Below, piece by piece: positions 2,704 to 42,155 of a DNA stretch of 64,000 nt. The notes beneath the pieces were generated by a model. That model saw only the letters and a program-made list of their open reading frames with translations. It had not been told where the DNA came from and did no database searches. The stretch is from the IMG/VR virus record IMGVR_UViG_3300043775_001731, one strand, 5' to 3'. The stretch's first letter is position 1. Every line of letters begins with the position of its first letter. The position numbers were made by a program, and so were the translations under genes. The stretch is from a virus.

Positions 2704-4692
2704 TTAATACACATCTTTCATGTTATCAGAGAACCAACTGGGGCCAATATATAGCTTTTCGTCTTCTTTTGCTGGAACATGACCACCAGTAGCAAAACCG
2801 CCATAAAACTGATAGGTTTCTGGGGTTGGAGTCCTGTGTATTATTCTACCAGCCATATTAGCCATTAAGAGTGCAGAATATCTATCTTTTCTCATTTTAC
2901 TTTTTCTACCAGTTCCAACTATAACCTCTGGAGTGTCCCACCTGTCTCTACCATTAGATGTTTGGGTCATCTGGATCATAGATAATTCATCCTTAAGTTC
3001 TTCTATATCCATGACGCACTCTTCTAAAGTGTCAAACATTCTGCTTTTTAAACCATCTTCAGAATTTGACAATCCAAGTGTTATAGAGTCAAAGAATGGA
3101 AATAACAGAACCTTATCTTCAAAATCTTTTCTCATACCGTGATTAGCTTCTGCTAACCAATCATATCTGGCAAATTGACACATTTCTAATATGTGCAACC
3201 CTCTTTCTCCGTCTGTATCTTTGGGTTTATCGTCATCAATTGTAGGCCAGATAGGCATTTCATCATCTTTAATTTTATCTTTATCGTGTAGTGATTCCAT
3301 AATTGCAACACCGCCACCTTGAGCATCCATAGCAATATGAACACATGGGAAGAGTCTCATCAAATCTCTAATTTTTCTCGCACAATATGCATAGAAATCT
3401 GACTCTTTAGCATATCCCTTCTTCACTTTTTCTTTGTGTTCTTGCCTCGTTGTGGTCCAGCAATGAACTATTTTTCTATGATCTCCACTAATTTCTAGAA
3501 CTACAATACTAAAATTGTCTACTTCAGATGCGGGGTCAACGCCAAAAACATATCTTTTATTTGTATCGCCAATTAGACAAGCTTCAAACTTTATAATGTC
3601 ACCTCTAGAGTCCATGACAGGGTTATCATTACTACCAACAACACACGACTCTATTAATGATCTTTTGAAGAACCCCTGACTGTCTCTAGTAAAGCAAGCC
3701 CCGTATTCCATCTGATATATACCAGCGTGTACTGTAGCCTTAGACCTTGCTACTTGATCAGCGTCCATGAAACCCACTGGCAATAGTTCGTATGGCATTC
3801 TTATTATAGAATATTGACGCCAATCAAAAGTATCTGGGGGTTGTTCTCCACCAAATACTTCAGTCAGTTTAGCTCTATTACCACGGCTTTTTATAATAGC
3901 CTTCCACTTTTTCCAATATGTAGCAAAATGATTAAAATCATAATAAGCAGTACCAGAAAGAATAATTTGATTATCTTTTATCTCTGTATTCTCTTCTTCA
4001 GTTTCTATTTCTATTCCAAGCTCTGCCGCCTTCTTTTTTGCGGATATTCTCTTAACATTTTGCACAGGATCAGCACTAACAGCAGCAAAGCCCGCGACTA
4101 CATTTTCAAATATATCCCTAGGAATAGAAGCAAACTCGTCTGCAATAATATCATTAGCACGTTGACCTCTAATCTTTTGACCGTCACCTAGTGGTAAACA
4201 TGTTATAACGCTTTCATTAATTCTCATTGTACATCTATCAACATCTCGCGTTGGGCCGCTATTCCCATCGCACATATCTCTTAACATGGGAGCATTACGC
4301 CATATAGTTTCCATGTATTCAAACAAAACCTTGGATTGTCTAAATGCAGCACCAACTATAACAATCTTTCGCTTGGGCATTAACATTGCCCTCAATATAG
4401 AATATAACGACAACTGGAATGATTTACCAAGACCTCGACTGCCAACAAGCATTGGGAACTTTCTATTCCAAAGTTCGTTGATAATAAGAGACTGAGATGG
4501 CAGAAGTTGTATATTCAATATCTGGTGGCATAAGAATGGCAAATACTCGGATCTACTCATTAGCCAAGAAAGCTTGAGATGAAAATCATCATCTGATGGA
4601 TTGAGAATAGACATAGGATTAAAAATGTCAGCTTCAATGACATCTAAACCTAGCCAAGCCTCATCTATTATTTTGAGGTTATCTTTTTTCAT
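2704..4692 (-). CDS. terL: terminase large subunit
   Basis: Walker A-like GSRGLGKS, Walker B IIADEFA, RGQRAN motif, QMEYGACF, RNase H-like nuclease FGVDPAS and C-terminal KDRYSAL. Confidence 0.9.
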   Translation of the reverse strand: MKKDNLKIIDEAWLGLDVIEADIFNPMSILNPSDDDFHLKLSWLMSRSEYLPFLCHQILNIQLLPSQSLIINELWNRKFPMLVGSRGLGKSFQLSLYSILRAMLMPKRKIVIVGAAFRQSKVLFEYMETIWRNAPMLRDMCDGNSGPTRDVDRCTMRINESVITCLPLGDGQKIRGQRANDIIADEFASIPRDIFENVVAGFAAVSADPVQNVKRISAKKKAAELGIEIETEEENTEIKDNQIILSGTAYYDFNHFATYWKKWKAIIKSRGNRAKLTEVFGGEQPPDTFDWRQYSIIRMPYELLPVGFMDADQVARSKATVHAGIYQMEYGACFTRDSQGFFKRSLIESCVVGSNDNPVMDSRGDIIKFEACLIGDTNKRYVFGVDPASEVDNFSIVVLEISGDHRKIVHCWTTTRQEHKEKVKKGYAKESDFYAYCARKIRDLMRLFPCVHIAMDAQGGGVAIMESLHDKDKIKDDEMPIWPTIDDDKPKDTDGERGLHILEMCQFARYDWLAEANHGMRKDFEDKVLLFPFFDSITLGLSNSEDGLKSRMFDTLEECVMDIEELKDELSMIQMTQTSNGRDRWDTPEVIVGTGRKSKMRKDRYSALLMANMAGRIIHRTPTPETYQFYGGFATGGHVPAKEDEKLYIGPSWFSDNMKDVY

Positions 4693-8842: not shown

Positions 8843-9627
8843 TCTATCACCGTGTCTGGCGTTAAGAATGGCTGATCAATCTGTCCGTCCTCATATTGAT
8901 GGAACTGACTTAAACGCTCTTTCTCCTTAAGCATAGCAAGCCTCATCTTCTCCATTTCGATCCCATATCGCTTTAGAGTTTCGGGGTCTTGCATAAGGTG
9001 AGCAACCCAAGAAGTAAAGCTTTGTTTACTATCCTCAAGACGTTTGATTCTCTGTTCTCTGGTTCCTTTCATCTCACGCAACATGCTAGCCTTTTTGCTT
9101 TGGAGTTCTCGGTAGTCCCTATTAAGGGCTTCTTGCGAAGCCCGTAAGGAAGCTAGTTGACGTTCTAGATTTAAAACGTAGTCATGGTCACGTTGATCCT
9201 TATCCACGGCCCGCTCATCTGCTAACATTTTTTCTAAAGTGGTCATCTCATTAAGGTTATCTTTATTACTCTTTAAGCAGCGGTTCATAAGTATTTCTAG
9301 CTTAATAACATCTACTACCTGTAGTTCTTCTGTTGGAAAAACGTCATCTTTGAACTGTGAAATTATGCGCGACCAGTGATACTTAAAAAGCTCTAGTTCT
9401 GAAGGAGTAAACTGGTTCTCTAATTCAATCCAATAGGGGCGATCTTCTAGAGAGTATGCGGCGGCTTCTTCGTTTGATAATCCAACCTTGAACTTGCGCT
9501 TAACAAAGTTGTCAATGGATTCAACGTCACGGTCGAGTTGTTTGGCGATATCTTCTATGGTTAAGCTATTAATTAGCCTGCCGATTGTTCGCTCCTCGTC
9601 TTTAGAGATTCTACCCTTCTTCATCAA
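8839..9627 (-). CDS. HTH + coiled-coil protein, candidate terminase small subunit
   Basis: N-terminal TIEDIAKQLDRDVESI (HTH-like) and long coiled coil; lies in the packaging operon. Confidence 0.45.
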   Translation of the reverse strand: MMKKGRISKDEERTIGRLINSLTIEDIAKQLDRDVESIDNFVKRKFKVGLSNEEAAAYSLEDRPYWIELENQFTPSELELFKYHWSRIISQFKDDVFPTEELQVVDVIKLEILMNRCLKSNKDNLNEMTTLEKMLADERAVDKDQRDHDYVLNLERQLASLRASQEALNRDYRELQSKKASMLREMKGTREQRIKRLEDSKQSFTSWVAHLMQDPETLKRYGIEMEKMRLAMLKEKERLSQFHQYEDGQIDQPFLTPDTVIE

Positions 9628-10099
9628 GCAACTCCTTGATTATTTCAATGATTTCTTCTCTTCTTTTTTTCGGTACGTATACGTCATTAATTATTTTTAG
9701 GTAATCAGATCGGTATTCTGCTGGTAATCTCATATCAATAGTCTTTTGTAGGGCTTGGGCGTCTATTTTGTCATCCTCAACTTTATCTTCATGAGGAACA
9801 TAATCTTCATAAGATAAACTACTGGGTTTTAGGATCTTTTTCTTTTCTTCTTCATCTTTGGTGTAAAAATTATCACGAACGAAGTTTTTAAGTCTATTAG
9901 ATAGGTGAACTGATAAGAAATTCTCCAAGGGGCGACTTGGATCATAGCGGTCCATAGCATCCATGCAAATAATAAAAGCTTCTTGTTTTATATCCTCAAC
10001 CTCATATCCATGAAAAGTATATCGTGATGATATCCTATTAACGACAATGTTAATCTGATCTACCACCTGTTGTTCTGTCATATTTTTAGGTATCTTCAT
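9611..10099 (-). CDS. sigma70-family region-2-like factor
   Basis: EDIKQEAFIICMDAMDRYDPSRPLENFLSVHLSNRLKNFVR resembles sigma region 2; start at ATG 10099, overlapping the upstream TGA. Confidence 0.7.
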   Translation of the reverse strand: MKIPKNMTEQQVVDQINIVVNRISSRYTFHGYEVEDIKQEAFIICMDAMDRYDPSRPLENFLSVHLSNRLKNFVRDNFYTKDEEEKKKILKPSSLSYEDYVPHEDKVEDDKIDAQALQKTIDMRLPAEYRSDYLKIINDVYVPKKRREEIIEIIKELLDEEG

Positions 10100-10875
10100 T
10101 CCGACTCGTCTTCTACCCACTTTAATGTTCTCCATTTCGAACCGTTATAGAACTTAACGGTGTCCGTTGTTTCGTCGTAAATAAAAGTACCCTTCTTAAC
10201 GTTAAGATCGCTAGAAGAATCTAATTGTAAATGTTTTACCGATAGCTTGTTAACGCTAAGTTTTGAAGTTTTAAGCGATAGCTGTTTAGTATACTTCGTC
10301 AAAGATTCAGCAATAATATCGCTAAATGTTTTGCTATCAAATGCTAGGTTAGTCAACTCTCCATGCATTGATGTTAAAACACAATTATCTAGAATCTCTA
10401 ACGCGGATGGGGCGAACTGATCTCTAGAAGCCAGTACGCAGTTCTTTGTATGAAATAAGAGAGATAAGTTAGGGGGGATGTCTGAAGATAGTATGCTAGT
10501 ACTATCTGGAGGAAAGTGAAATCTTAAACAGTTATTAGTAATAACTTGTAAGTGTTTTTCGTTCTTTCCGTGAACTAGTGGCAAATCTCGCTTGAAATAA
10601 TGCTTGCCTTCAGACTCATAGGCATAACCAATGCCAGTTTCATGGCCAACTATAACATTATTCTGATAACAAACCAACCTATAAAAGAATTTATTATTGG
10701 GGCCGAGGCCGATTGAATTAGCAACTGTGTTATCTTCAGTAATGTGTTTATAATATACGGCTTCTGAAAATTCTATATTTGCACGTTGTATATCATCTAT
10801 TCCACATAATAATAGATCGTTGCTACTTGGATCATCACAAGGTTTTACAGCTTCAATCGCTTGACTTTGTTTCAT
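10096..10875 (-). CDS. hypothetical virion-associated protein
   Basis: C-terminal KGTFIYDETTDTVKFYNGSKW typical of tail-fibre-type segments. Confidence 0.5.
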   Translation of the reverse strand: MKQSQAIEAVKPCDDPSSNDLLLCGIDDIQRANIEFSEAVYYKHITEDNTVANSIGLGPNNKFFYRLVCYQNNVIVGHETGIGYAYESEGKHYFKRDLPLVHGKNEKHLQVITNNCLRFHFPPDSTSILSSDIPPNLSLLFHTKNCVLASRDQFAPSALEILDNCVLTSMHGELTNLAFDSKTFSDIIAESLTKYTKQLSLKTSKLSVNKLSVKHLQLDSSSDLNVKKGTFIYDETTDTVKFYNGSKWRTLKWVEDESE

Positions 10876-11336: not shown

Positions 11337-11384
11337 ACTAATAATATGATCGACACGATGTTCTGTTTAAGAGAATAATATATT

Positions 11385-11400
11385 TGGCACACCGTTTGCT
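11385..11400 (+). promoter_or_regulatory. sigma54-type -24/-12 motif
   Basis: TGGCACACCGTTTGCT (GG-N10-GC). Confidence 0.65.
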
Positions 11401-11459
11401 CTAGAGAATATTTCTTGCTTTGGCACAAGATTATATTCAAAAATATTTTAGATTGCTAC

Positions 11460-11487
11460 TTGACATGGCCGATAAGTATGGTATAAT
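11460..11487 (+). promoter_or_regulatory. sigma70 promoter with GCCGATA spacer box
   Basis: TTGACA-tggccgataagtatgg-TATAAT. Confidence 0.85.
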
Positions 11488-11518
11488 AAGAGCATAAGAA
11501 AGAAAGAGAGAAAGAAAA

Positions 11519-11713
11519 ATGACAATCAACACTGAAATCAAGACAACCTACAATGGCAAGACTTATACGGGCTTCATTGTAGAAAAGAAGATGGTCAAGG
11601 GTCGTGAAATGATCCGAATCATGATTGAAGATAGTTCGCGGAATGAGGGTATTGGATACCGTAGCATGTACGTTGACATGATGACTCAAACTTCCGAAAA
11701 TCTTTTTGCTTAA
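11519..11713 (+). CDS. small early hypothetical protein
   Basis: own promoter and purine-rich leader. Confidence 0.7.
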   Translation: MTINTEIKTTYNGKTYTGFIVEKKMVKGREMIRIMIEDSSRNEGIGYRSMYVDMMTQTSENLFA

Positions 11714-11772
11714 GGCTTGACACGGGAAAAGACGATAGATATAATAGAGAGAAAGAAAGAGAGAGAAAGAAA

Positions 11773-11937
11773 ATGACATACTTCGCACAAATCGTAGACG
11801 CTTGGGATTGTGAACTAGACTTCATCGGCCCTTTCACTAGTGAGGATGCGGCCAATACTGCCGCTTTCGATAAGTGGGATGGTGAGGATGGATGTAGGGT
11901 TTATATCGTTCGTAGACTTCCCGCTTCCAATAACTGA
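11773..11937 (+). CDS. small early hypothetical protein (MTYFAQIVDAWD...)
   Basis: 54 aa; own TTGACA/TATAAT promoter and AAAGAAAGAGAGAAAGAAAATG leader. Confidence 0.65.
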   Translation: MTYFAQIVDAWDCELDFIGPFTSEDAANTAAFDKWDGEDGCRVYIVRRLPASNN

Positions 11938-12013
11938 AAAAATATTTTCTATAGGCTTGACACGGCGAAAGCCGATGAGTATAATAGAGCGAAAGAAAGA
12001 AAAGGAAAAGAAA

Positions 12014-12142
12014 ATGACAACGCTTGTGCTGATCGTAGTAGGAAAGAAATACAAGGTATACAAGGATATGGGCAATGGTAAGCGTAGGCTTCTAGGCTCT
12101 TTCAATAGTTCGACTGAGGCCGAACGATTCATGAACGCTTGA
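12014..12142 (+). CDS. 42-aa early protein, paralog of 13270..13398
   Basis: MTTLVLIVVGKKYKVY...; own promoter. Confidence 0.7.
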   Translation: MTTLVLIVVGKKYKVYKDMGNGKRRLLGSFNSSTEAERFMNA

Positions 12143-12203
12143 CAAATAGATAGACGATAGATATAATATCCACAGTTATCCAACCCTAAGAAAGAAAAAG
12201 AAA

Positions 12204-12419
12204 ATGTTTGGCACTGCATACGCTGTCCGTAAGAATAACCTCAACACTATCTTCGCATCTATGATCGCTGGTAAGTATACCAGTGTGATCGACCCGAAGG
12301 GTAGGGTATATGCTGGCCTTATCAATGCTGTCATGCGTGAGGATGGTAGTGGTCGCAACTGGATCGTAACCATCACGAATCAGACCAAGAGTGAACGGGT
12401 GTTCATTCACGCAGCCTAG
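12204..12419 (+). CDS. small early hypothetical protein
   Basis: own promoter (TTGACA 12139) and purine-rich leader. Confidence 0.7.
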   Translation: MFGTAYAVRKNNLNTIFASMIAGKYTSVIDPKGRVYAGLINAVMREDGSGRNWIVTITNQTKSERVFIHAA

Positions 12420-12544
12420 AGCGTACTATCTAATCTAAACCGGTAAGCACCCCCCACAATAGGGAGACAATAGAATGCCCATTCTAGTATTCGTATGCGT
12501 GTACGTTGGACTACTGTACATCTGTATGACTGTAGAAGATTGAA

Positions 12545-12626
12545 CGTAAAGCCTTATCCTATAAGGACTTAGGGCGAATCCGGCCCCCCAGATTTGACGT
12601 AAACCCTTGTGGCATAAGGACTTAGG
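12545..12626. repeat. paired 29-bp dyad element B
   Basis: CGTAAAGCCTT-atcctat-AAGGACTTAGG (12545) and CGTAAACCCTT-gtggcat-AAGGACTTAGG (12598). Confidence 0.9.
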
Positions 12627-12637
12627 GCGAATATCAA

Positions 12638-12653
12638 CGCAAAATCCGTGCCA
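12638..12653 (-). promoter_or_regulatory. sigma54-type motif (antisense)
   Basis: minus strand TGGCACGGATTTTGCG. Confidence 0.6.
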
Positions 12654-12708
12654 AAAAATAATATATTCCACGCCTAAAAAAGAGGCATGTTAAGATGGGC
12701 AATCCGTT

Positions 12709-12784
12709 GCAAAATGCTACACTACCTCAGTTTCACGGCGGAAATCACTAACGCAAAATGCTACAGGGTGTTGCAAAATGCTAC
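12709..12784 (+). repeat. three direct repeats of GCAAAATGCTAC
   Basis: identical 12-mers at 12709, 12753 and 12773. Confidence 0.85.
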
Positions 12785-12856
12785 GCTCAATATCTAAGCA
12801 CAAAAAATGTCATAGCGTTTTTCCCGAGCGAAACGCAAAAAAAAATAATCTATGTT

Positions 12857-12872
12857 TGGCACGGTAGTTGCT
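12857..12872 (+). promoter_or_regulatory. sigma54-type -24/-12 motif
   Basis: TGGCACGGTAGTTGCT, upstream of the ORF ending at 13052. Confidence 0.7.
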
Positions 12873-13269
12873 CTTATATATAGCATAAGAAAGAGAGAGT
12901 TTAAGATGATGAATAAGACAATGAAAAATGCGATTAAGAGAATCAAGAATGAAAACAATAGGCAAGTTGCATACAATATGCCGATTGTGAATAAGGATAT
13001 GAAAAAGAATGATGAAATGGTTCGTAAGTTTTTTGAAAGTATGAAAGGTTGATAGTATGAGAAAGTCTTATAGATATTCCGATGATGGTTATGATTATTC
13101 CCGTGACAATCGGGACGGATACGTTCAAGAGTTTTTGAAGTCTCTGGAAAGAGATGAGGAAATGAAGCGTATGCAAGAAAAAACGAAAAACGAAAACAAA
13201 AAATCGTAAGTTTTTCCGCTTGCATCTTCAAGATTAGACGCTAGAATGTCGATAGATAAGAAAGAGAAA

Positions 13270-13398
13270 ATGAAAATGACTCAGGTTTTGATCGTAGTCG
13301 GAAACAAGTATAAGGTATATTCCGAAGCCAACGGAAAGCGTAAACTGTTGGGAGTTTTTAAGACTTCCCAAGATGCTATTCGGTTCATGAACTCTTGA
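13270..13398 (+). CDS. 42-aa early protein, paralog of 12014..12142
   Basis: MKMTQVLIVVGNKYKVYSEANGKRKLLGVFKTSQDAIRFMNS. Confidence 0.7.
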   Translation: MKMTQVLIVVGNKYKVYSEANGKRKLLGVFKTSQDAIRFMNS

Positions 13399-13415
13399 AA
13401 CAAGGAAAACAAAAA

Positions 13416-13742
13416 ATGAAAAAGTTTAAGATTATCCGCGATGCCGAACGCCAGATTCGTTCATGCTTTTTGGGAATCGCCGTTCCTCATCAGCCTAGCC
13501 TAGCCGATGGTGAATACGGGCCAATCCGTAGCGAAAAGGTAATCAAGTTTAATAAAACGGCTTTGCGAAATATGGGCAAGATGAAGAAAGAGAAAGTCGA
13601 TCCCCGCCTTGTAGGGGGTAGTGATCTCATGGTTGATAAGGTAGGTAAGCCGGGAAGCAAAGATAGAGTAGAGGCTTTGCGGGCTTTCTATGAACTACAG
13701 AATATGGCAGGACAGGAAATCTCCGCATTTCACGAAGAATAG
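13416..13742 (+). CDS. early hypothetical protein
   Basis: ATG preceded by an AAGGA RBS. Confidence 0.65.
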   Translation: MKKFKIIRDAERQIRSCFLGIAVPHQPSLADGEYGPIRSEKVIKFNKTALRNMGKMKKEKVDPRLVGGSDLMVDKVGKPGSKDRVEALRAFYELQNMAGQEISAFHEE

Positions 13743-13863
13743 GGGGTTTTGGTAAGATAGGCAAGATGGGTAATCTAGGCAAAATGGGGGGTTTGGGGGG
13801 TTTGGGCAAACTGGGAAGTCTCGGCCAAACTGGCCGGATCATTTTGTAGTCAGCGTAGTCAGC
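13742..13863 (+). repeat. 9-bp-period G-rich tract followed by TAGTCAGC x2
   Basis: ggtaagata ggcaagatg ggtaatcta ggcaaaatg gggggtttg gggggtttg ggcaaactg ggaagtctc. Confidence 0.7.
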
Positions 13864-14170
13864 AAAAATCCGCTTGACAACTAAAGTCTAGACGATAGAA
13901 TGTCGATATAAGAACAAAGGAGAAAGAAATGTATCGTGCTAGTTTCATCTTTGTCGTGTTCGTTCTGCCGATTCTGAATATTGTGTTTTGCCTTGGATTT
14001 CTGGCGGGAAAGTATTCACAATGAAAAAGTGGATTTGCTACAATCTGTTTGGTGAACATCCTGATGATGTTGACACGTTTGGTATGGTTAGTGGGCTAGG
14101 CATTTTGGCTTTCTTGGTTTTCTGGACTAGTTATCTTTTTGTTTATCTTCCCTTTTACTTTTGGTGCTAA

Positions 14171-14473
14171 ATGACTCACTCCGAAGCGACTAAGATGGTT
14201 TTGGGCAAGACTAATCGCAGTCAACGTAAGGTGGGAAACAATACCTACGCTTACATTGAACATGATGGAAGTGTGGCGATTGAGTTGCATGGTACTAAGG
14301 TGGTGGTTTTTTATCCTAACGGGCTGATTAAGTTGAGCAGTGGTGGATATCGAACCAGCACTACTAAAAAGCGTATTAATCAGTATAGTCCGGTGAGTGT
14401 GTACCAGAAAAACTTTGAATGGTTTTTGCGTGATGGTACTCCGTTTGAAGATAATGTTTTGGTTCGTAACTAA
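14171..14473 (+). CDS. early hypothetical protein
   Basis: 100-aa ORF (LHGT...LSSGGYRTSTTKKRINQY). Confidence 0.7.
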   Translation: MTHSEATKMVLGKTNRSQRKVGNNTYAYIEHDGSVAIELHGTKVVVFYPNGLIKLSSGGYRTSTTKKRINQYSPVSVYQKNFEWFLRDGTPFEDNVLVRN

Positions 14474-14667
14474 AGAAAGGGATCACGGATGGTCGATATT
14501 AACTGGGTACAAATAGGTGTGGGATTTGTTATTGGCGTTGGTTGCTCTTATCTTGTTTCTGATCTTGTTTTTCCAATAAGGAAGTGAAAATGCGTACAGG
14601 TGATGCGATTGTTCTTTCTATTTCATTCGTGATCGGATGTATAGCGGCTTGGATTGTGAACAGTTGA

Positions 14668-14727
14668 CGTAACTCTATATCTGACAAGGGTTTAGGGCGA
14701 ACGGGGCGGGCCGCGATTTTCGTGCCA
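14668..14727. repeat. dyad element C (single dyad + linker + antisense TGGCACG)
   Basis: CGTAACTCTAT-atctgac-AAGGGTTTAGG, GGGGCGGGCCGCG linker, CGTGCCAAA exactly 53 bp after the dyad start. Confidence 0.8.
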
Positions 14728-15030
14728 AATCACCTTTCATCTTTTTAAGGAAAAAATATTGTTGGAGGGGCTTGACATTGCCGATATACCCTGTATGATG
14801 ATGGTATCACAAGGAGAAATGGAAATGAATACCTTTGAAGATCAAGAAGCGATGGATGCTTTCTTTGCCACACTGATCGCAGAAGAAGTGGTGGAACCAA
14901 TGGTTGAGCCGATTGACGAACCGGATTGTAGTCCGTTTGACTATGCAGAAGTGACGGGCCTGTGGGATGAAATGTATCCCGAGCCGCTTGACATCAACGA
15001 TTTCGTGTGGTAAAGTCTAACTAAGGAGAA

Positions 15031-15252
15031 ATGAAGATGAGTCACCCAGATCCCTGCTACGATCCCGAAAACTCTTATGAGGATGATGACATGGAATACC
15101 ATGATGATACTGCCGATGCTATCTATGATGATTACAATGATTTCTATGATGATAGTATGGATGGCGACCACGATAGTGCTATGAACTCTATCGGTTGGGA
15201 CGTTGATGAAGGTTATGGATGTTTTGGTGACACTTACGGAGATGATTTCTGA
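15031..15252 (+). CDS. extremely Asp-rich small protein
   Basis: AAGGAG RBS; composition dominated by D and Y. Confidence 0.7.
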   Translation: MKMSHPDPCYDPENSYEDDDMEYHDDTADAIYDDYNDFYDDSMDGDHDSAMNSIGWDVDEGYGCFGDTYGDDF

Positions 15253-15656
15253 TGAATGATGCGTTTACTTTGGGCATTTGTTTTGCTTGTGCCGTTGCGG
15301 CGATTGGTATTTTCCTTCTCTATAACATCTATAGGGGTGTAAATGATAGTCTTACTAATGCTGTTACTGGTACTGTATATAACTTTCGATACTTCCAGCC
15401 AGTAACGGGCGACTATGAAAGGTATCTCGCCAAGGTTGTTGGTGTTCGCAAGTTATCTCAGGCTGAAATCTCGCGTTTGAACTGGACAAGTGATTACCGT
15501 CAATATGATAGTGAGTTTAAGCGTAGTCCTACGCTTGTTACATGCGAAATGAGTAACGGTGATTTTCGACAGTTCTATGCTGAACGTAGCGACATGTGCA
15601 GGCGTTCAGCTGTAGGTGAACTTTTGTTCAAGGCTGGTGTGGCACACCTGTTTTAA
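15252..15656 (+). CDS. membrane-anchored hypothetical protein
   Basis: N-terminal TM helix; translationally coupled to the upstream gene. Confidence 0.65.
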   Translation: MNDAFTLGICFACAVAAIGIFLLYNIYRGVNDSLTNAVTGTVYNFRYFQPVTGDYERYLAKVVGVRKLSQAEISRLNWTSDYRQYDSEFKRSPTLVTCEMSNGDFRQFYAERSDMCRRSAVGELLFKAGVAHLF

Positions 15657-15678
15657 TGTACACTGCCTAGACCCTTCT

Positions 15679-15760
15679 CCTAAGTCCTTACGGGCAAAGG
15701 AGTTAGGGCTAGGCGGGCGGGCCGGATTTGTCGTAAAGCGTTGTGGGATATAGACTTAGA
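15679..15760. repeat. paired 29-bp dyad element D
   Basis: CCTAAGTCCTT-acgggca-AAGGAGTTAGG (15679) and CGTAAAGCGTT-gtgggat-ATAGACTTAGA (15732). Confidence 0.85.
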
Positions 15761-16047
15761 AAAAGTTTCAAGTCGGGCTTGACAAACGCCGATAATATGG
15801 TAGGCTACGTAAGTCCGCATAGCATAAGGAGTTATGGTATGTCAAAATGGGATGAATGGGTACACTGCGAGGAATCGGCAGACTTGGTAGTTTGGGAGGA
15901 ATGGGAAGAATACAAAAGGCAGGCAAAATGCGGGGGAGAGTCTTTCCCAAAGAATGAAGATTGATGTTGTGCAGATAGTCAGCGACAGGATGACTTGACA
16001 GACCTTCCATTTTAGAGTAAACTTTGTAGACAAGAAAGGACGATAAT

Positions 16048-16251
16048 ATGATTATCAAACCTAAACAGAACGCTCGCAAGTGGACAAAAGAACGGTTGAA
16101 ACGGCATCCTGGCTTGTGGGAAGTTGAGCAGGAAGCAAAGGAAGCACCGTGCTGGCAGGGAGAAAAGGCTATTCTTTTGAAAAACATTCAAGATGGTTGG
16201 AGTGGCTGGTTTCCTGTAATAGACATTGAGGTAGAAAATGGGAATATTTGA
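16048..16251 (+). CDS. small hypothetical protein
   Basis: AAGGA RBS. Confidence 0.6.
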   Translation: MIIKPKQNARKWTKERLKRHPGLWEVEQEAKEAPCWQGEKAILLKNIQDGWSGWFPVIDIEVENGNI

Positions 16252-16516
16252 TATCTTTACTGCATCTGAGATGAGGGCTATCTGGCGTGATGAGACTAAC
16301 GCATGGCCCGAGAACTTTACTCTATGCGTGAATGATCTACTGGCTAATGATCTTCTGGATTCATGGCTTGACAACCATAGCGATGAGGAGTATCGTGAGC
16401 GTATCCGCGAGATTGTTGAGGATGAGACTTATGGCTATGAAGACGATGATGGTAACGAACTACTGGATTTCAACCCTATCGTAGAAAATGACGGACAGAT
16501 TAAGTTATTTGAATAG
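16238..16516 (+). CDS. acidic small hypothetical protein
   Basis: GAGG RBS; D/E-rich. Confidence 0.65.
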   Translation: MGIFDIFTASEMRAIWRDETNAWPENFTLCVNDLLANDLLDSWLDNHSDEEYRERIREIVEDETYGYEDDDGNELLDFNPIVENDGQIKLFE

Positions 16517-16600
16517 TTGACAAACTGGGGGCTTATGGCATAATGATATCAAAGAAGCCATAAGTAAAAGACAGTCGAGTATGGCAGACACCCCCATTTT

Positions 16601-16674
16601 GGGTCATTAGCTCAGTTGGTTAGAGCATCGGACTTTTAATCCGTTGGTCGTAGGTTCGAATCCTACATGACTCA
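16601..16674 (+). tRNA. tRNA-Lys(UUU)
   Basis: cloverleaf; anticodon loop CTTTTAA; GTTCGAAT T-loop. Confidence 0.95.
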
Positions 16675-16894
16675 TTGACTTTTTGGTGTGTATACAGTAT
16701 AATAGATAAAACCATTCCTTTAACCCCTAAATACTATGTACAACGAAAATGTCATGAAATGGTGCGGCCCTTACGATACTGAAGAGTATGATGATCTTAT
16801 CGTATATGAGGAAGAGATTATCGTAGTAGATGATAGTGAGGAATGGTATAACAATATTTATGCTTCGGAGGCTGACGGTTGAGTTGCGGTGGTG

Positions 16895-16966
16895 GCCGAC
16901 ATAGCTCAATGGTAGAGCCACTGATTTGTAATCAGTAGGTTACAGGTTCAAGTCCTGTTGTCGGCT
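16895..16966 (+). tRNA. tRNA-Thr(UGU)
   Basis: ACTGA-TTTGTAA-TCAGT anticodon arm. Confidence 0.95.
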
Positions 16967-16967
16967 C

Positions 16968-17038
16968 TTCGGGATGGTGAAACGGTATCACGACTGACTT
17001 TGGATCAGTCTTTCTACGTTCGAATCGTAGTCCCGAAA
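16968..17038 (+). tRNA. tRNA-Gln(UUG)
   Basis: ACTGA-CTTTGGA-TCAGT; TTCGGGA/TCCCGAA acceptor stem. Confidence 0.93.
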
Positions 17039-17041
17039 TAT

Positions 17042-17113
17042 TGGCAAATAGCACAACGGTAGTGCAAGCGGCTGTTAACCGCTAGGTTATAGGTTCGAAT
17101 CCTGTTTTGCCAG
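17042..17113 (+). tRNA. tRNA-Asn(GUU)
   Basis: AGCGG-CTGTTAA-CCGCT. Confidence 0.95.
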
Positions 17114-17116
17114 CTT

Positions 17117-17188
17117 GGCCCCATCTTCTAACGGTTAGGAAATCGGATTTTCGCTCCGAGAATCAGGGTTCGATTCCCTGTGGGGTCA
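17117..17188 (+). tRNA. tRNA-Glu(UUC)
   Basis: TCGGA-TTTTCGC-TCCGA. Confidence 0.92.
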
Positions 17189-17192
17189 TTTT

Positions 17193-17266
17193 GGGAATGT
17201 AGATCAATTGGTTAGATCGCTAGCCTGTCACGCTAGAGGTTGCGGGTTCAAGTCCCGTCATTCTCG
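17193..17266 (+). tRNA. tRNA-Asp(GUC)
   Basis: CTAGC-CTGTCAC-GCTAG. Confidence 0.95.
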
Positions 17267-17275
17267 TTTTCTTTT

Positions 17276-17335
17276 CGTAAGTCCTTATCTCTCAAGGATT
17301 TAGCAACAACGGGGCGGGCCGCGTTTTTCGTGCCA
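17276..17335. repeat. dyad element E (single dyad + linker + antisense TGGCACG)
   Basis: CGTAAGTCCTT-atctctc-AAGGATTTAGC; CGTGCCAAA at +53. Confidence 0.85.
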
Positions 17336-17374
17336 AATGCCCTAGGATTCAGTTATTTCATTTTTTGCAACAAG

Positions 17375-17390
17375 TGGCACACGCTTTGCT
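17375..17390 (+). promoter_or_regulatory. sigma54-type -24/-12 motif
   Basis: TGGCACACGCTTTGCT. Confidence 0.65.
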
Positions 17391-17456
17391 CTCTAAAGAT
17401 TTCTCTTGACCATGCCGATATAGAGTGTAGAATGATGGCATACACAGGAGAAAGTT

Positions 17457-25270: not shown

Positions 25271-26467
25271 ATGAGTTACGATAAGTTGACGATTCAGAGC
25301 AAGCCGAGCGAAGGCGATTTTGTTCGTACTCTCACTGGTGCTACTGGCACTGGTTTTGAGAAGGGTACGCATGTTCACAAGGATTGGTGGGCAAAGACCA
25401 AGACCTACGAACAGGTCATGCAGGATGCCAACGTCGCTATTGAGAACCGTGAGGATATTCTGACTGAGCGTAAGAACATTACCTGTGTTGGTAATGATAA
25501 AGGATTCTTTTTGAAGTTGAACGATGGACGAGAGTTTCGCCCTACGGACCACGCCATTGAACAGTTTAGCGTTCGCGTGGGTGTTACCTCGTCCTCGTTC
25601 CTTCGTGAGATGCGTAATATCGAAGATTTCGACCTTGCCGATGCTGACACGATGGCATACGTTGGCAACAATGCTCTGCGTCGAATCGAAGCCGATAAGA
25701 AGTTCCGACTCCGTACATATACGGATGGTACTTGCCGTGCGTTCGTGACTGAGCAATATGCTCCTGTTGATAACCGCTGGTATCTGGAAACCCTGTCGGA
25801 GTTTGTTCCCGGCGGTCGTTTCAGTCACTGGCGTGGCGATGAGGATACTATCTATGGTAATATCCTTATCCCCGATACTATCATGGACTACGGTGCTGAC
25901 GATAGTGATTATGGTGGAATGATTAGTGTGGGCAACTGTGAAATCGGCACTCGCCGCATTAGCCAGACGCCTAGCCTTTTTCGTGCCATCTGTATGAACG
26001 GTTGCATCTGGGGTCAGACTAAGGGTGAGAAGATTCGCCGCGTTCACCGTGGCAATATCGACCTCGCTGTTCTGAAAACGGAAATCGCTCATAATATCCA
26101 AGATCAGATTCCGCTTCTTGCTCCCGGTATCAAGCAGTTTCTGGCTACCCGAGCCTTGGAAACTGGCAAGGCTAGCGTGAAGGGTGTCGTGGCTACGGTA
26201 TCGTCGGATTACAAACTGAGCAAGCGTGAAGCAACTGAGTTTCTTGAGCAGTATATTACTATGGAATCTGGAGAGCGTAATCTCTTTGGTATTATCAATG
26301 GTCTGACCCGTGCGGGACAGAAGTTTGATAATAAGACTTGGGTGAAGTTCGATGAAATCGCTGGCAGTCTGTTGGATACTTCCGCAGACCGCTGGGCAAC
26401 GATCCTGCGTCGTGCTGATACTTTCACCGACAAGGATTACGAAAAGGTTTTCGCTCTTACCGCTTAG
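25271..26467 (+). CDS. DUF932-like protein
   Basis: RAFVTEQYAPVDN, ISVGNCEIG, LFRAICMNGCIWG, RRVHRG, NLFGIINGLT. Confidence 0.75.
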   Translation: MSYDKLTIQSKPSEGDFVRTLTGATGTGFEKGTHVHKDWWAKTKTYEQVMQDANVAIENREDILTERKNITCVGNDKGFFLKLNDGREFRPTDHAIEQFSVRVGVTSSSFLREMRNIEDFDLADADTMAYVGNNALRRIEADKKFRLRTYTDGTCRAFVTEQYAPVDNRWYLETLSEFVPGGRFSHWRGDEDTIYGNILIPDTIMDYGADDSDYGGMISVGNCEIGTRRISQTPSLFRAICMNGCIWGQTKGEKIRRVHRGNIDLAVLKTEIAHNIQDQIPLLAPGIKQFLATRALETGKASVKGVVATVSSDYKLSKREATEFLEQYITMESGERNLFGIINGLTRAGQKFDNKTWVKFDEIAGSLLDTSADRWATILRRADTFTDKDYEKVFALTA

Positions 26468-30930: not shown

Positions 30931-31579
30931 TGGAAGACCCACTAGTTAGAATTAAACACTTAAAAAAGACAGCAAAGCATATTGGCAAAGACGTTGCCAG
31001 AAATAGAGAAATACCATTAGATCAACTTACTGGCTTTATAAAGCCAAGTGAGATAGTATCTATTATAAAACAACACGCCATTGAAAGAGATGGAGATTAC
31101 TTATTAAATACTAAGCTTTTACAAAAGATATTTACTGATGTAAATGATTGGGTTTTAGGGGTTCATTTATCTAAAATGGCTTCTAAAGATTTAATTGACA
31201 CTTATTGGGATACTGATTTAAATTGTATGACTTTTGCAGCAAAGGATAATAAAAATGGCAAGAAAACTATTTAAGGCCCGCCAGCATGAATCTGGCACAA
31301 TTGTAACAACCAAAACACCATATGGTAGCGATTCATCTATGATCGTTGATCCATCAAAATACAAAACAATTTCAATTAATGCAGATGAAGTAGTCTGCAA
31401 GGATGATCGTGGATTTTACGTAACAAAAAAGAATCGTATAGACAGTGGAATGGCCGACCCTAACCGTTATAGTAGTTATAAATCTAGGGTTGACCTTGAA
31501 GAACCGGTAGAAGAAACTTCAAGTACTTGACACAAGGAAGACGATACTGTATAATACGTTCAATCGCAAAGGAGTTATG

Positions 31580-33502: not shown

Positions 33503-33771
33503 GGGAGTATAGCCCAACGGCAGAGGCAAAGGACTTATACAATTTGAGTGCATAAAAGGAAACTTTTAATGTAGAACCTGTCAAATTCGGTGAAGGCTTA
33601 ACTGCTAATACCGAGCCAAGCATAGAAATATGAAGGTGTAGAGACTTAACGGCAGGAACCTAAAACGAAAGTTATGGTTAAGATAAAGTCCAGACTACAA
33701 ACAGAAATGGTAGTGAAAACTATAGTAGTAAGAAAATCCTTAAAGTGTCGGTTCGAATCCGACTACTCCTA
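33503..33771 (+). tRNA. tRNA-Leu(UAA) interrupted by a group I intron
   Basis: exon 1 33503-33536 (...AAGGACTT) + exon 2 33733-33771 (AAAATCCTT...GTTCGAAT...) rebuilds loop CTTAAAA. Confidence 0.9.
33537..33732 (+). ncRNA. group I intron (IC3-like), 196 nt, ORF-less
   Basis: AAATTCGGTGAA/AATACCGAGC (P4), GTGTAGAGACT/AAGATAAAGTCC (P7), CCTGTC/GGCAGG (P3); U-G 5' splice site; terminal G. Confidence 0.9.
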
Positions 33772-41772: not shown

Positions 41773-42120
41773 GGGGGCGAAAGGTATCGACAGGTAAACG
41801 GATATATAGATGGCATCCACTGGTTAATCGACCGGCCAGTATAAAAGTCGATTAAAATGTTAGTTGGCGAAACTCGTTTCGCTCTCGCTGCCTGACCTAG
41901 TTAGGCAAGAGTGCGGTGGCATGAACCGTATTGCCCAATCATGCTGACTCCGATAATCGGATATGGTATCCTCACCAAACATAAATGGGGGTAATGATTG
42001 TATTCAATCTGACACAGATAATTCTGTTAGCTTTGTTAGCTGTGCGAGAACAACTAACTAAGGATGTAGATGTTTATATTGAAATTATTCTGGACGCGAG
42101 TTCGATTCTCGCCGCCTCCA
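41773..42120 (+). ncRNA. ssrA: tmRNA; tag (A)GETRFALAA
   Basis: 5' GGGGGCG...TCGAC; 3' GACGCGAGTTCGATTCTCGCCGCCTCCA with G3-U pair; tag ORF 41866-41895. Confidence 0.93.
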
Positions 42121-42155
42121 CTTGACAATAGCAACTAATAGAGATACAATTAGTA

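Follow-up and report, generated by a model that had tools for sequence, protein, structure and literature searches.

Can a virulent-looking phage place part of its early programme under an alternative sigma factor of its host? The question is raised by a 64,000-nt stretch of IMG/VR virus record IMGVR_UViG_3300043775_001731 (hereafter the window; it is the reverse complement of 23300–87299 in the 95,491-bp record, which is estimated to be 63% complete), where six boxes resembling the -24/-12 promoter element of sigma-54 (RpoN) occur within 6 kb of the early region, half of them antisense to the early genes. Textbook phage gene control relies on sigma-70, phage sigma factors or phage polymerases, and a transcription route through host sigma-54 has rarely been described in phages. 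Transcription by sigma-54 needs an ATP-driven activator and is normally tied to signals of the host, among them nitrogen status, envelope stress, RNA damage and quorum state. A first-pass annotation of the sequence had proposed that the phage co-opts host sigma-54, with neighbouring dyad elements serving as upstream activating sequences (UAS), or else that closed sigma-54 complexes act as roadblocks or sinks beside strong sigma-70 promoters. The reading that we favour, to which we assign a probability of about 0.5 on the basis of sequence patterns, is that host sigma-54 polymerase binds the boxes, with those at 12857 and 12639 as activator-dependent promoters and the others as extra promoters or sites of parked complexes.

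All six boxes stand where the first-pass annotation had placed them and have the sequences that it gave: TGGCACACCGTTTGCTCT at 11385, TGGCACGGTAGTTGCTCT at 12857 and TGGCACACGCTTTGCTCT at 17375 on the plus strand, and TGGCACGGATTTTGCG (12638–12653), TGGCACGAAAATCGCG (14712–14727) and TGGCACGAAAAACGCG (17320–17335) on the minus strand. We scored the pattern TGGCAC-N5-TTGC, with consensus, spacing and permutation controls in place of an RpoN weight matrix. Exact matches were found at 11385 (+), 12639 (-), 12857 (+) and 17375 (+), that is, four in the window against 0.07 expected, and none of 100 shuffled controls contained more than one exact box. With one mismatch allowed, there were eight matches against 2.0 expected. 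The comparison with shuffled background that had been suggested for these motifs therefore came out as enrichment, by a consensus scan rather than a weight matrix. The two remaining boxes, 14713 and 17321 in our numbering, are weaker antisense elements that retain GG-N10-GC with a non-consensus -12 (TCGC and ACGC, respectively). Outside the four window sites, the rest of the 95,491-bp record contains no exact TGGCAC-N5-TTGC. The window and the genome sequence used for comparison disagree at window bases 6, 9 and 12 and agree everywhere else, which probably reflects data handling.

The same pattern is conserved in relatives of the phage. In G001, a complete relative of 166.6 kb with terminal repeats and a terminase 97% identical to that of the window, seven exact sites were detected, all at most 2.9 kb from the homologous region. 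Across 80 family loci (896 kb), 29 exact sites were detected, and all of them lie 5.8–9.8 kb upstream of the terminase start, in the early region; 17 point with the early genes and 12 against them. Reversed or permuted boxes gave 0–1 sites in these loci. Spacings from N2 to N9 other than N5 gave 0–3 sites each, except N7, whose 12 sites are one conserved coding sequence, leaving N5 as the only enriched spacing. The sigma-54 signature of the family thus consists of an invariant TGGCAC and TTGC at a spacing of exactly N5, with a variable spacer. The base that follows TGGCAC is A or G in 29 of 29 sites and the base that precedes it is mostly T, flanks which agree with the sigma-54 consensus YTGGCACG-N4-TTGCW, as quoted in PMC3352281. 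The support for a sigma-54-type element is therefore agreement at ten of ten specified consensus bases with exact spacing, found in the early region only and with N5 only.

The box at 12857 is the only one of the six that is oriented as a promoter upstream of a gene lacking another promoter; 11385 and 17375 are correctly oriented and share their gene with a sigma-70 promoter, while 12639, 14713 and 17321 are antisense. Its core (12857–12905, +) reads TGGCACGGTAGTTGC, then TCTTATATATA, after which come the predicted +1 (12883), a G, and the leader CATAAGAAAGAGAGAG, which is also used after sigma-70 promoters of the phage. Two tiny genes of 48 and 50 aa, belonging to no family, follow at 12906–13209 (+). 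Upstream of the core are three 13-bp near-palindromes (12707–12783), TTGCAAAATGCTA at 12707, ACGCAAAATGCTA at 12751 and TTGCAAAATGCTA at 12771, with centres at -170, -126 and -106 relative to the predicted start; together they constitute a candidate enhancer. They cluster only here; apart from two looser isolated matches at 15921 and 43049, the 95-kb record contains no further copy. The stretch from the palindromes to the core holds an inverted repeat, GCGTTT..AAACGC (12815–12836, +), and an A9 tract (12837–12845). No consensus for integration host factor (IHF) was found between the candidate UAS and the box, and the A9 tract possibly provides an intrinsic bend in place of an IHF site. At least one of the boxes, 12857, would thus have the full layout of an enhancer-dependent promoter.

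This arrangement recurs as a cassette of ~330 bp, which we aligned in nine copies from six genomes (this phage, G002 and G004 with one each, and G001, L007 and L010 with two each). Its order comprises one or more dyad elements, a short inverted repeat, three 13-mers of the TTGCAAAATGCTA type, a second inverted repeat (GCGTTT..AAACGC), an A7–9 tract, TTGGCAC-N5-TTGCTCT, an AT-rich stretch (positions -10 to -1) that runs into a purine, the leader ATAAGAAAGAGAG and the start codon. TTGGCAC and TTGCT are invariant across the nine copies, which have six different 5-nt spacers, and a purine (G or A) occupies the predicted +1, 12 nt after the C of the GC, in all nine. In eight copies, the positions of the 13-mers agree to within 1 bp; in the diverged G004 copy they are at -129 and -97. 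Other genes stand behind the cassette in relatives, and G001 carries two cassettes; the unit appears to behave as a portable control module.

It could be argued that the plus-strand boxes are weak sigma-70 promoters, with TTGGCA (five of six positions of TTGACA) as the -35 element and the remaining similarity explained by common ancestry of duplicated modules, and the promoter scan does flag TTGGCA-N17-AATATT at 11384 and TTGGCA-N16-AATATT at 11420, each at 9/12. We consider this very improbable given that TTGC is invariant inside a spacer that would be unconstrained, that the TATATA register shifts relative to TTGGCA and not relative to GC, and that the antisense and paired sites are without any -10 partner. 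The box at 12857 and its eight homologues also lack a -10 hexamer (A at position 2, T at position 6) at 16–18 bp. The promoter scan flagged no sigma-70-like site on the strand of 12857 between 12237 and 12948, and no usable -10 hexamer lies at a constant 16–18 bp from TTGGCA across the copies.

On the other side of the palindromes, the exact box at 12639–12653 (-) points leftward into the double dyad at 12547–12624, antisense to the early genes. Measured from its predicted start (~12627), the same three 13-mers lie at -86, -130 and -150. Because one set of palindromes serves both distances, 12639 and 12857 look like two divergent sigma-54 promoters that share one enhancer. The leftward box is exact in three of the nine cassette copies, and a one-mismatch version is present in a fourth. 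That it yields a small RNA running leftward across the dyads is a conjecture.

The dyads themselves had been put forward as the sigma-54 UAS, and this part of the proposal fares less well. Nine dyad elements were located between 11257 and 26610, the paired ones at a step of 53 bp (12547/12600 and 11257/11310). The geometric relation seen at first pass is exact: at the two loci with a single dyad followed by an antisense box, the distance from the dyad's CGTAA to the start of CGTGCCA is 53 bp (14668 to 14721; 17276 to 17329). Five of the nine elements, however, are without a box (near 15681, 19167, 22366/22419, 24838/24891 and 26533/26586), and the usual position of a dyad is 35–45 bp upstream of a sigma-70 -35 hexamer. 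For these reasons, the 29-bp dyads do not appear to be specific to sigma-54, and we regard them as boundary or sigma-70-associated elements rather than as a dedicated sigma-54 enhancer. Dyads do occur at enhancer-like distances from 11385 (-142 and -89) and from 17375 (-111), where they may act as a UAS; for 12857, the three 13-bp palindromes would be the better enhancer candidate. The dyad plus its linker was also considered as an intrinsic terminator and set aside, as no convincing fold was obtained.

The other boxes accompany sigma-70 promoters or dyads. The box at 11385–11399 (+), TGGCACACCGTTTGC followed by TCT, is co-directional with the early genes, has a predicted start at 11411 and lies 61 bp upstream of the -35 element of the consensus sigma-70 promoter at 11460–11487. 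Its spacer is AGCAT in G001, AGCGT in G002 and ACGAT in L013, while the boxes are invariant. Downstream of it, a TGGCAC half box without the -12 GC, TGGCACAAGATTATA (11421–11435, +), is -24-like and conserved in relatives; it is not a full sigma-54 site and possibly represents a weak sigma-70 -35 (TTGGCA-N16-AATATT). The exact box at 17375–17389 (+), TGGCACACGCTTTGC followed by TCT, lies 17 bp upstream of the sigma-70 -35 hexamer TTGACC (17406), which its predicted start (17401) abuts, and the same tandem layout is found in the distant relatives L041 and L078. On the minus strand, TGGCACGAAAATCGC (14713–14727, -12 TCGC) replaces the second dyad after the single dyad at 14670–14694 and stands back-to-back, 45 bp apart, with a sigma-70 promoter at 14772, whereas TGGCACGAAAAACGC (17321–17335, -12 ACGC) follows the single dyad at 17278–17302, just downstream of the tRNA cluster. 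Both minus-strand boxes are identical in G001.

Paired boxes are a further feature of the relatives. In G001, some boxes stand back-to-back with 8 bp between them, and a double dyad is flanked by convergent boxes; head-to-head pairs in L032, L033 and L035 form 35-bp palindromes. Scans of IMG/VR for paired exact boxes returned at least 120 loci each, with 221 loci among the matches listed, counts that are inflated by related contigs. Among these matches, 3–7 bp separate the -12 boxes in 167 of ~200 head-to-head pairs, and the gaps of back-to-back pairs peak at 10 and 20 bp. Of the 221 listed loci, 36 resemble the compared family sequences at the translated level, and 185 show no detectable resemblance. 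In five contigs (L114, L176, L184, L203 and L211), three to four head-to-head pairs are arrayed at intervals of ~45–55 bp, some of them at contig ends. That the pairs keep fixed geometries in many phage lineages suggests that their reader is conserved from host to host and that selection acts on binding in addition to transcription.

Such geometries lend some weight to the idea that sigma-54 polymerase binds these sites without transcribing, as a roadblock or insulator between early cassettes, as a repressor of adjacent sigma-70 promoters, or by being drawn off into a sink of phage DNA. Head-to-head gaps of 3–7 bp and back-to-back peaks at 10 and 20 bp among the matches listed suggest a selected binding geometry; three of the six boxes in the window are antisense, at the 3' ends of transcription units that lack an intrinsic terminator; a closed complex at 11385 or 17375 would cover the upstream region of the sigma-70 promoter; and no activator gene was found in the phage. 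We nevertheless hold binding alone to be unlikely, since it leaves the 12857 cassette unexplained, with its enhancer-like palindromes at classical distances, AT-rich melting region, purine at +1, standard leader and lack of any other promoter. A sink, moreover, would be weak until the phage replicates, given the few sites per genome. For the antisense boxes, a role as roadblock or sink may still apply.

The likeness to sigma-54 promoters might also be coincidental, the true reader being a phage-encoded or other host factor that recognizes a pair of like hexamers, TGGCAC and TTGCTC, separated by one helical turn, in the manner of a tandem winged-helix binder. The boxes do resemble each other (TKGCWC, with an 11-bp period), an oligomeric binder would fit the fixed gaps of the palindromic pairs, many small early proteins of the phage have no assignment, the host may be without sigma-54, and the stretches of DNA under study were selected for sigma-54 resemblance, which inflates coincidences. 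Yet chance agreement at ten consensus positions, in spacing and in flanks is very unlikely, and the phage encodes no relative of the DNA-binding domain of sigma-54. A different reader would itself need to be conserved across phages or hosts, since 185 of the 221 listed loci are dissimilar to the family, and for the same reason a conserved host factor is the simplest reader. The mixture of single, tandem, divergent and convergent layouts does not match a single fixed oligomer, and a reader that is monomeric and asymmetric, such as sigma-54, would account for it more readily than would a dimeric repressor. On balance, we judge a non-sigma-54 reader improbable.

If sigma-54 reads the boxes, where do it and its activator come from? 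The first-pass annotation had suggested looking for rpoN or a GAFTGA-type activator elsewhere in the genome, and neither turned up in the phage or the relatives searched. No Sigma54_DBD or Sigma54_CBD domain is encoded in the phage family, the complete genome G001 included, and neither the AAA+ domain of bacterial enhancer-binding proteins (PF00158) nor the Fis-type helix-turn-helix HTH_8 was detected at E <= 1 in G000, G001, G003 and G004. Because the family encodes neither component, sigma-54 and its activator would have to be those of the host.

Several lines were followed towards that host. Terminase relatives occur in metagenome-assembled genome (MAG) bins named Silvanigrellaceae, SAR202, Rickettsiales and Flavobacteriales and in one unclassified bin, placements that are best read as mis-binning. 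When genomes from two phyla (201 and 301, respectively) were searched by BLAST with the phage tmRNA, only the conserved 3' end was matched, apart from one full-length match in a MAG that also has its own standard tmRNA. A lookup of GDP-mannose dehydratase in an atlas gave no informative host signal, and no WhiB was found. Shine-Dalgarno cores precede 55% of genes against a background of 8%; Shine-Dalgarno use and perfect TTGACA/TATAAT early promoters speak against a Bacteroidota host. The tmRNA itself (41773–42123) is a one-piece molecule (Rfam, 108.8 bits) with a Bacteroidota-like tag, GETRFALAA, which resembles the GENNYALAA of a Flavobacteriales MAG; a related phage-like contig has a tmRNA with the tag ADTSVLALAA. 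A 100-aa early protein (14171–14473) matches Pfam Kyano_Gp96 (Kyanoviridae Gp96, E 8e-10) and phrog_554, a hint that genes are shared with T4-like cyanophages. At 33527–33713, a group I intron was identified (Rfam, 58.7 bits).

A number of observations weigh against sigma-54 promoters. The Kyano_Gp96 homologue, the group I intron and a distant terminase match to a Microcystis phage hint at the cyanophage gene pool, and cyanobacteria, to our knowledge, are without sigma-54; the possibility of a cyanobacterial host is the main risk to our reading. The phage family has no enhancer-binding AAA+ domain, HTH_8 or sigma-54 domain of its own, so that rpoN and a suitable activator are presumed to be present in the host. 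The fixed distances of the candidate UAS partly reflect recent duplication of the cassette. The -12 elements of 14713 and 17321 are TCGC and ACGC, and in both the GC belongs to a GC-rich linker that is conserved in the dyad element. The box at 17375 is missing from G001, despite the 97% identical terminase, and a shorter unrelated sequence takes the place of the segment that carries it; because of this absence, we regard the box as dispensable, recently gained or lost. Of the family sites, 12 of 29 are antisense, and head-to-head pairs 3–7 bp apart cannot both be productive promoters. Finally, the count of matches to the enhancer consensus of the Vibrio activator LuxO, discussed below, is not significant alone (2 against 0.72 expected genome-wide).

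Our favoured reading is built on the architecture of the boxes, its conservation and the lack of sigma-54 or activator genes in the phage; from these, we infer the binder, its activation, the start sites and the role of the accessory boxes. A host AAA+ activator of the NtrC family, LuxO-like, would bind the three 13-mers at -106, -126 and -170, and the A-tract would bend the DNA between them and the 12857 core. The activator would then open the closed complex, and the transcript, beginning with the purine 12 nt beyond the GC, would carry the usual phage leader and the two tiny genes. The box at 12639 would use the same palindromes in the reverse direction and drive transcription across the double dyad. 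Among the accessory boxes, 11385 and 17375 stand in tandem upstream of sigma-70 promoters, and 14713 and 17321 stand antisense in place of a second dyad; they may be second promoters, or closed complexes at cassette boundaries that damp or insulate the nearby sigma-70 units. In sum, co-option of host sigma-54, as first suggested, is supported in part: the boxes exist, are conserved and occur in the early region only, with the full layout predicted at 12857, but the dyads are not supported as its specific UAS.

A broader and more doubtful proposition would be that widespread aquatic virulent phages wire part of their early programme to host sigma-54 in two ways. One would be the portable cassette, whose LuxO-like three-site enhancer would feed two divergent promoters, for small early genes on one side and a structured RNA across the double dyad on the other. 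The second would be boundary boxes in fixed geometries shared with many phages (head-to-head at 3–7 bp; back-to-back at 10 or 20 bp), where closed complexes would act as insulators or switches beside strong sigma-70 promoters.

The phage that carries these elements is a tailed phage whose near-identical DNA was found in 24 lake or other freshwater metagenome runs from 2016 to 2024, none of them an RNA run. IMG/VR holds more than 590 relatives of its large terminase (2704–4692, -), with 75–100% identity, from lakes and oceans. Among cultured phages there was no DNA match, and the terminase matches were only distant (<28% identity). The window also encodes a DNA polymerase III alpha-like protein, DnaB, primase, RecA, a class I ribonucleotide reductase, ThyX and a single-stranded DNA-binding protein, together with ten tRNAs, the tmRNA and the group I intron. 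Packaging and structural genes in the left part run leftward, and small early genes run rightward from ~11.4 kb, most of which follow a perfect TTGACA-N16/17-TATAAT promoter and a purine-rich leader. The leftward block is headed by a 174-aa protein with a Sigma70_r2 domain (9611–10135, -; E 1.8e-7), probably a phage sigma factor for late genes.

Other sequence features were recorded in and around the early region. The consensus sigma-70 early promoters have a common GCCGAT/GACGAT box in their spacers, from 11460 to 17433 and beyond (e.g. 11717, 11957, 12139, 14772 and 17406), which may be a regulator site or may reflect common ancestry of duplicated promoter modules. Two paralogous genes of ~42 aa, at 12014–12142 (MTTLVLIVVGKKYKVY..) and 13270–13398 (M..TQVLIVVGNKYKVY..), each have their own promoter, which indicates cassette duplication in the early region. 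A G-rich tract with a period of ~9 bp (GGGGTTTGG-like units) lies between two early transcription units at 13742–13830. Three candidates were rejected as unrelated to the boxes: TGGCACGAAAAAGGC at 25974, within an open reading frame, is not sigma-54-like; the perfect 17-bp palindrome TGGCAAAGACGTTGCCA (30983–30999) forms a one-mismatch box on both strands and lacks TGGCAC; and a 27-nt match to the Xanthomonas phage XbC2, whose genome contains no exact site, was attributed to chance. The palindrome has a near-identical counterpart in G001, TGGCAAAGATGTTGCCA at 162411–162427, and is probably an unrelated hairpin or operator.

If host sigma-54 does read the boxes, an abundant group of lake and ocean phages would couple some of its early genes to a host signalling pathway, and silent sigma-54 complexes might serve as DNA-bound switches. 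The 12857 cassette offers a compact, testable object of ~330 bp, with a predicted start and a predicted activator site. Its enhancer also gives a handle on the host, which would be sought as a genome with rpoN whose own promoters carry TTGCA-N3-TGCAA.

How does this locus compare with known systems? Promoter-early stem-loops (PeSLs) mark the cassette boundaries of T4-like phages. As there, small early genes with strong promoters of their own are separated here by repeated dyad elements, and relatives gain, lose and duplicate modules at the seams. The boundary differs, being a phased double dyad with a GC-rich linker, in a phage that is not T4-like, and we know of no description of PeSLs with sigma-54 boxes.

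The first-pass annotation had called sigma-54 use unusual for a lytic phage, which is fair, although there is a precedent. The virulent Pseudomonas phage YuA has a sigma-54-like promoter, P015, whose start was mapped by ONT-cappable-seq, according to PMC10914365 (and Ceyssens et al. 2008, as cited there). Both phages are without an RNA polymerase of their own and combine sigma-70-type with sigma-54-type promoters. For YuA, PMC10914365 links one promoter, P015, to a sigma-54-like region, whereas here six boxes lie in 6 kb, half of them antisense and linked to dyads, relatives have paired layouts, and the phage belongs to an uncultured family that is not related to YuA.

Silent or repressive sigma-54 sites have a counterpart in Escherichia coli, where genomic SELEX (gSELEX) yielded the consensus TGGCACnnTTnTTGC for sites bound by the sigma-54 holoenzyme alone, as reported in PMC8743547, which also proposes that bound RpoN holoenzyme acts, together with NtrC, as a repressor against the sigma-70 holoenzyme. 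Repression of this kind could apply to 11385, 14713, 17321 and 17375, all beside strong sigma-70 promoters. The E. coli sites are chromosomal and belong to a known sigma-54 host, in contrast to the dense cluster in a phage early region with fixed dyad relations seen here.

The closest likeness of the 12857 cassette is to the qrr promoters of Vibrio. Against the LuxO enhancer consensus TTGCAWWWTGCAA (PMC10162802, PMC3352281, PMC10328515), two copies of the phage 13-mer match at 12 of 13 positions and the third at 10 of 13, and the phage 13-mer differs by one base from the LuxO site of V. cholerae qrr1, ttgcaaaatgcaa (PMC10328515, PMC10162802, PMC3352281). Both systems have a TGGCAC-N5-TTGC core with several palindromic activator-type sites ~100–170 bp upstream, and the position of the phage cluster between two divergent boxes adds to the likeness. 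They differ in the carrier, here a virulent-looking phage without its own activator or sigma-54, in the A9 tract that stands where no IHF consensus was found, in the duplication of the cassette and its placement before different genes in relatives, and in the rightward product, which is protein-coding in the phage and a small RNA in the LuxO/Qrr type. Because the consensus count is not significant alone and Vibrio is an unlikely host for a lake phage, we take the resemblance as a lead to a possible activator and not as membership of this type. To these known systems, the present locus adds an enhancer candidate, a divergent layout, the separation of the dyads from sigma-54 and the spacing distributions of paired boxes.

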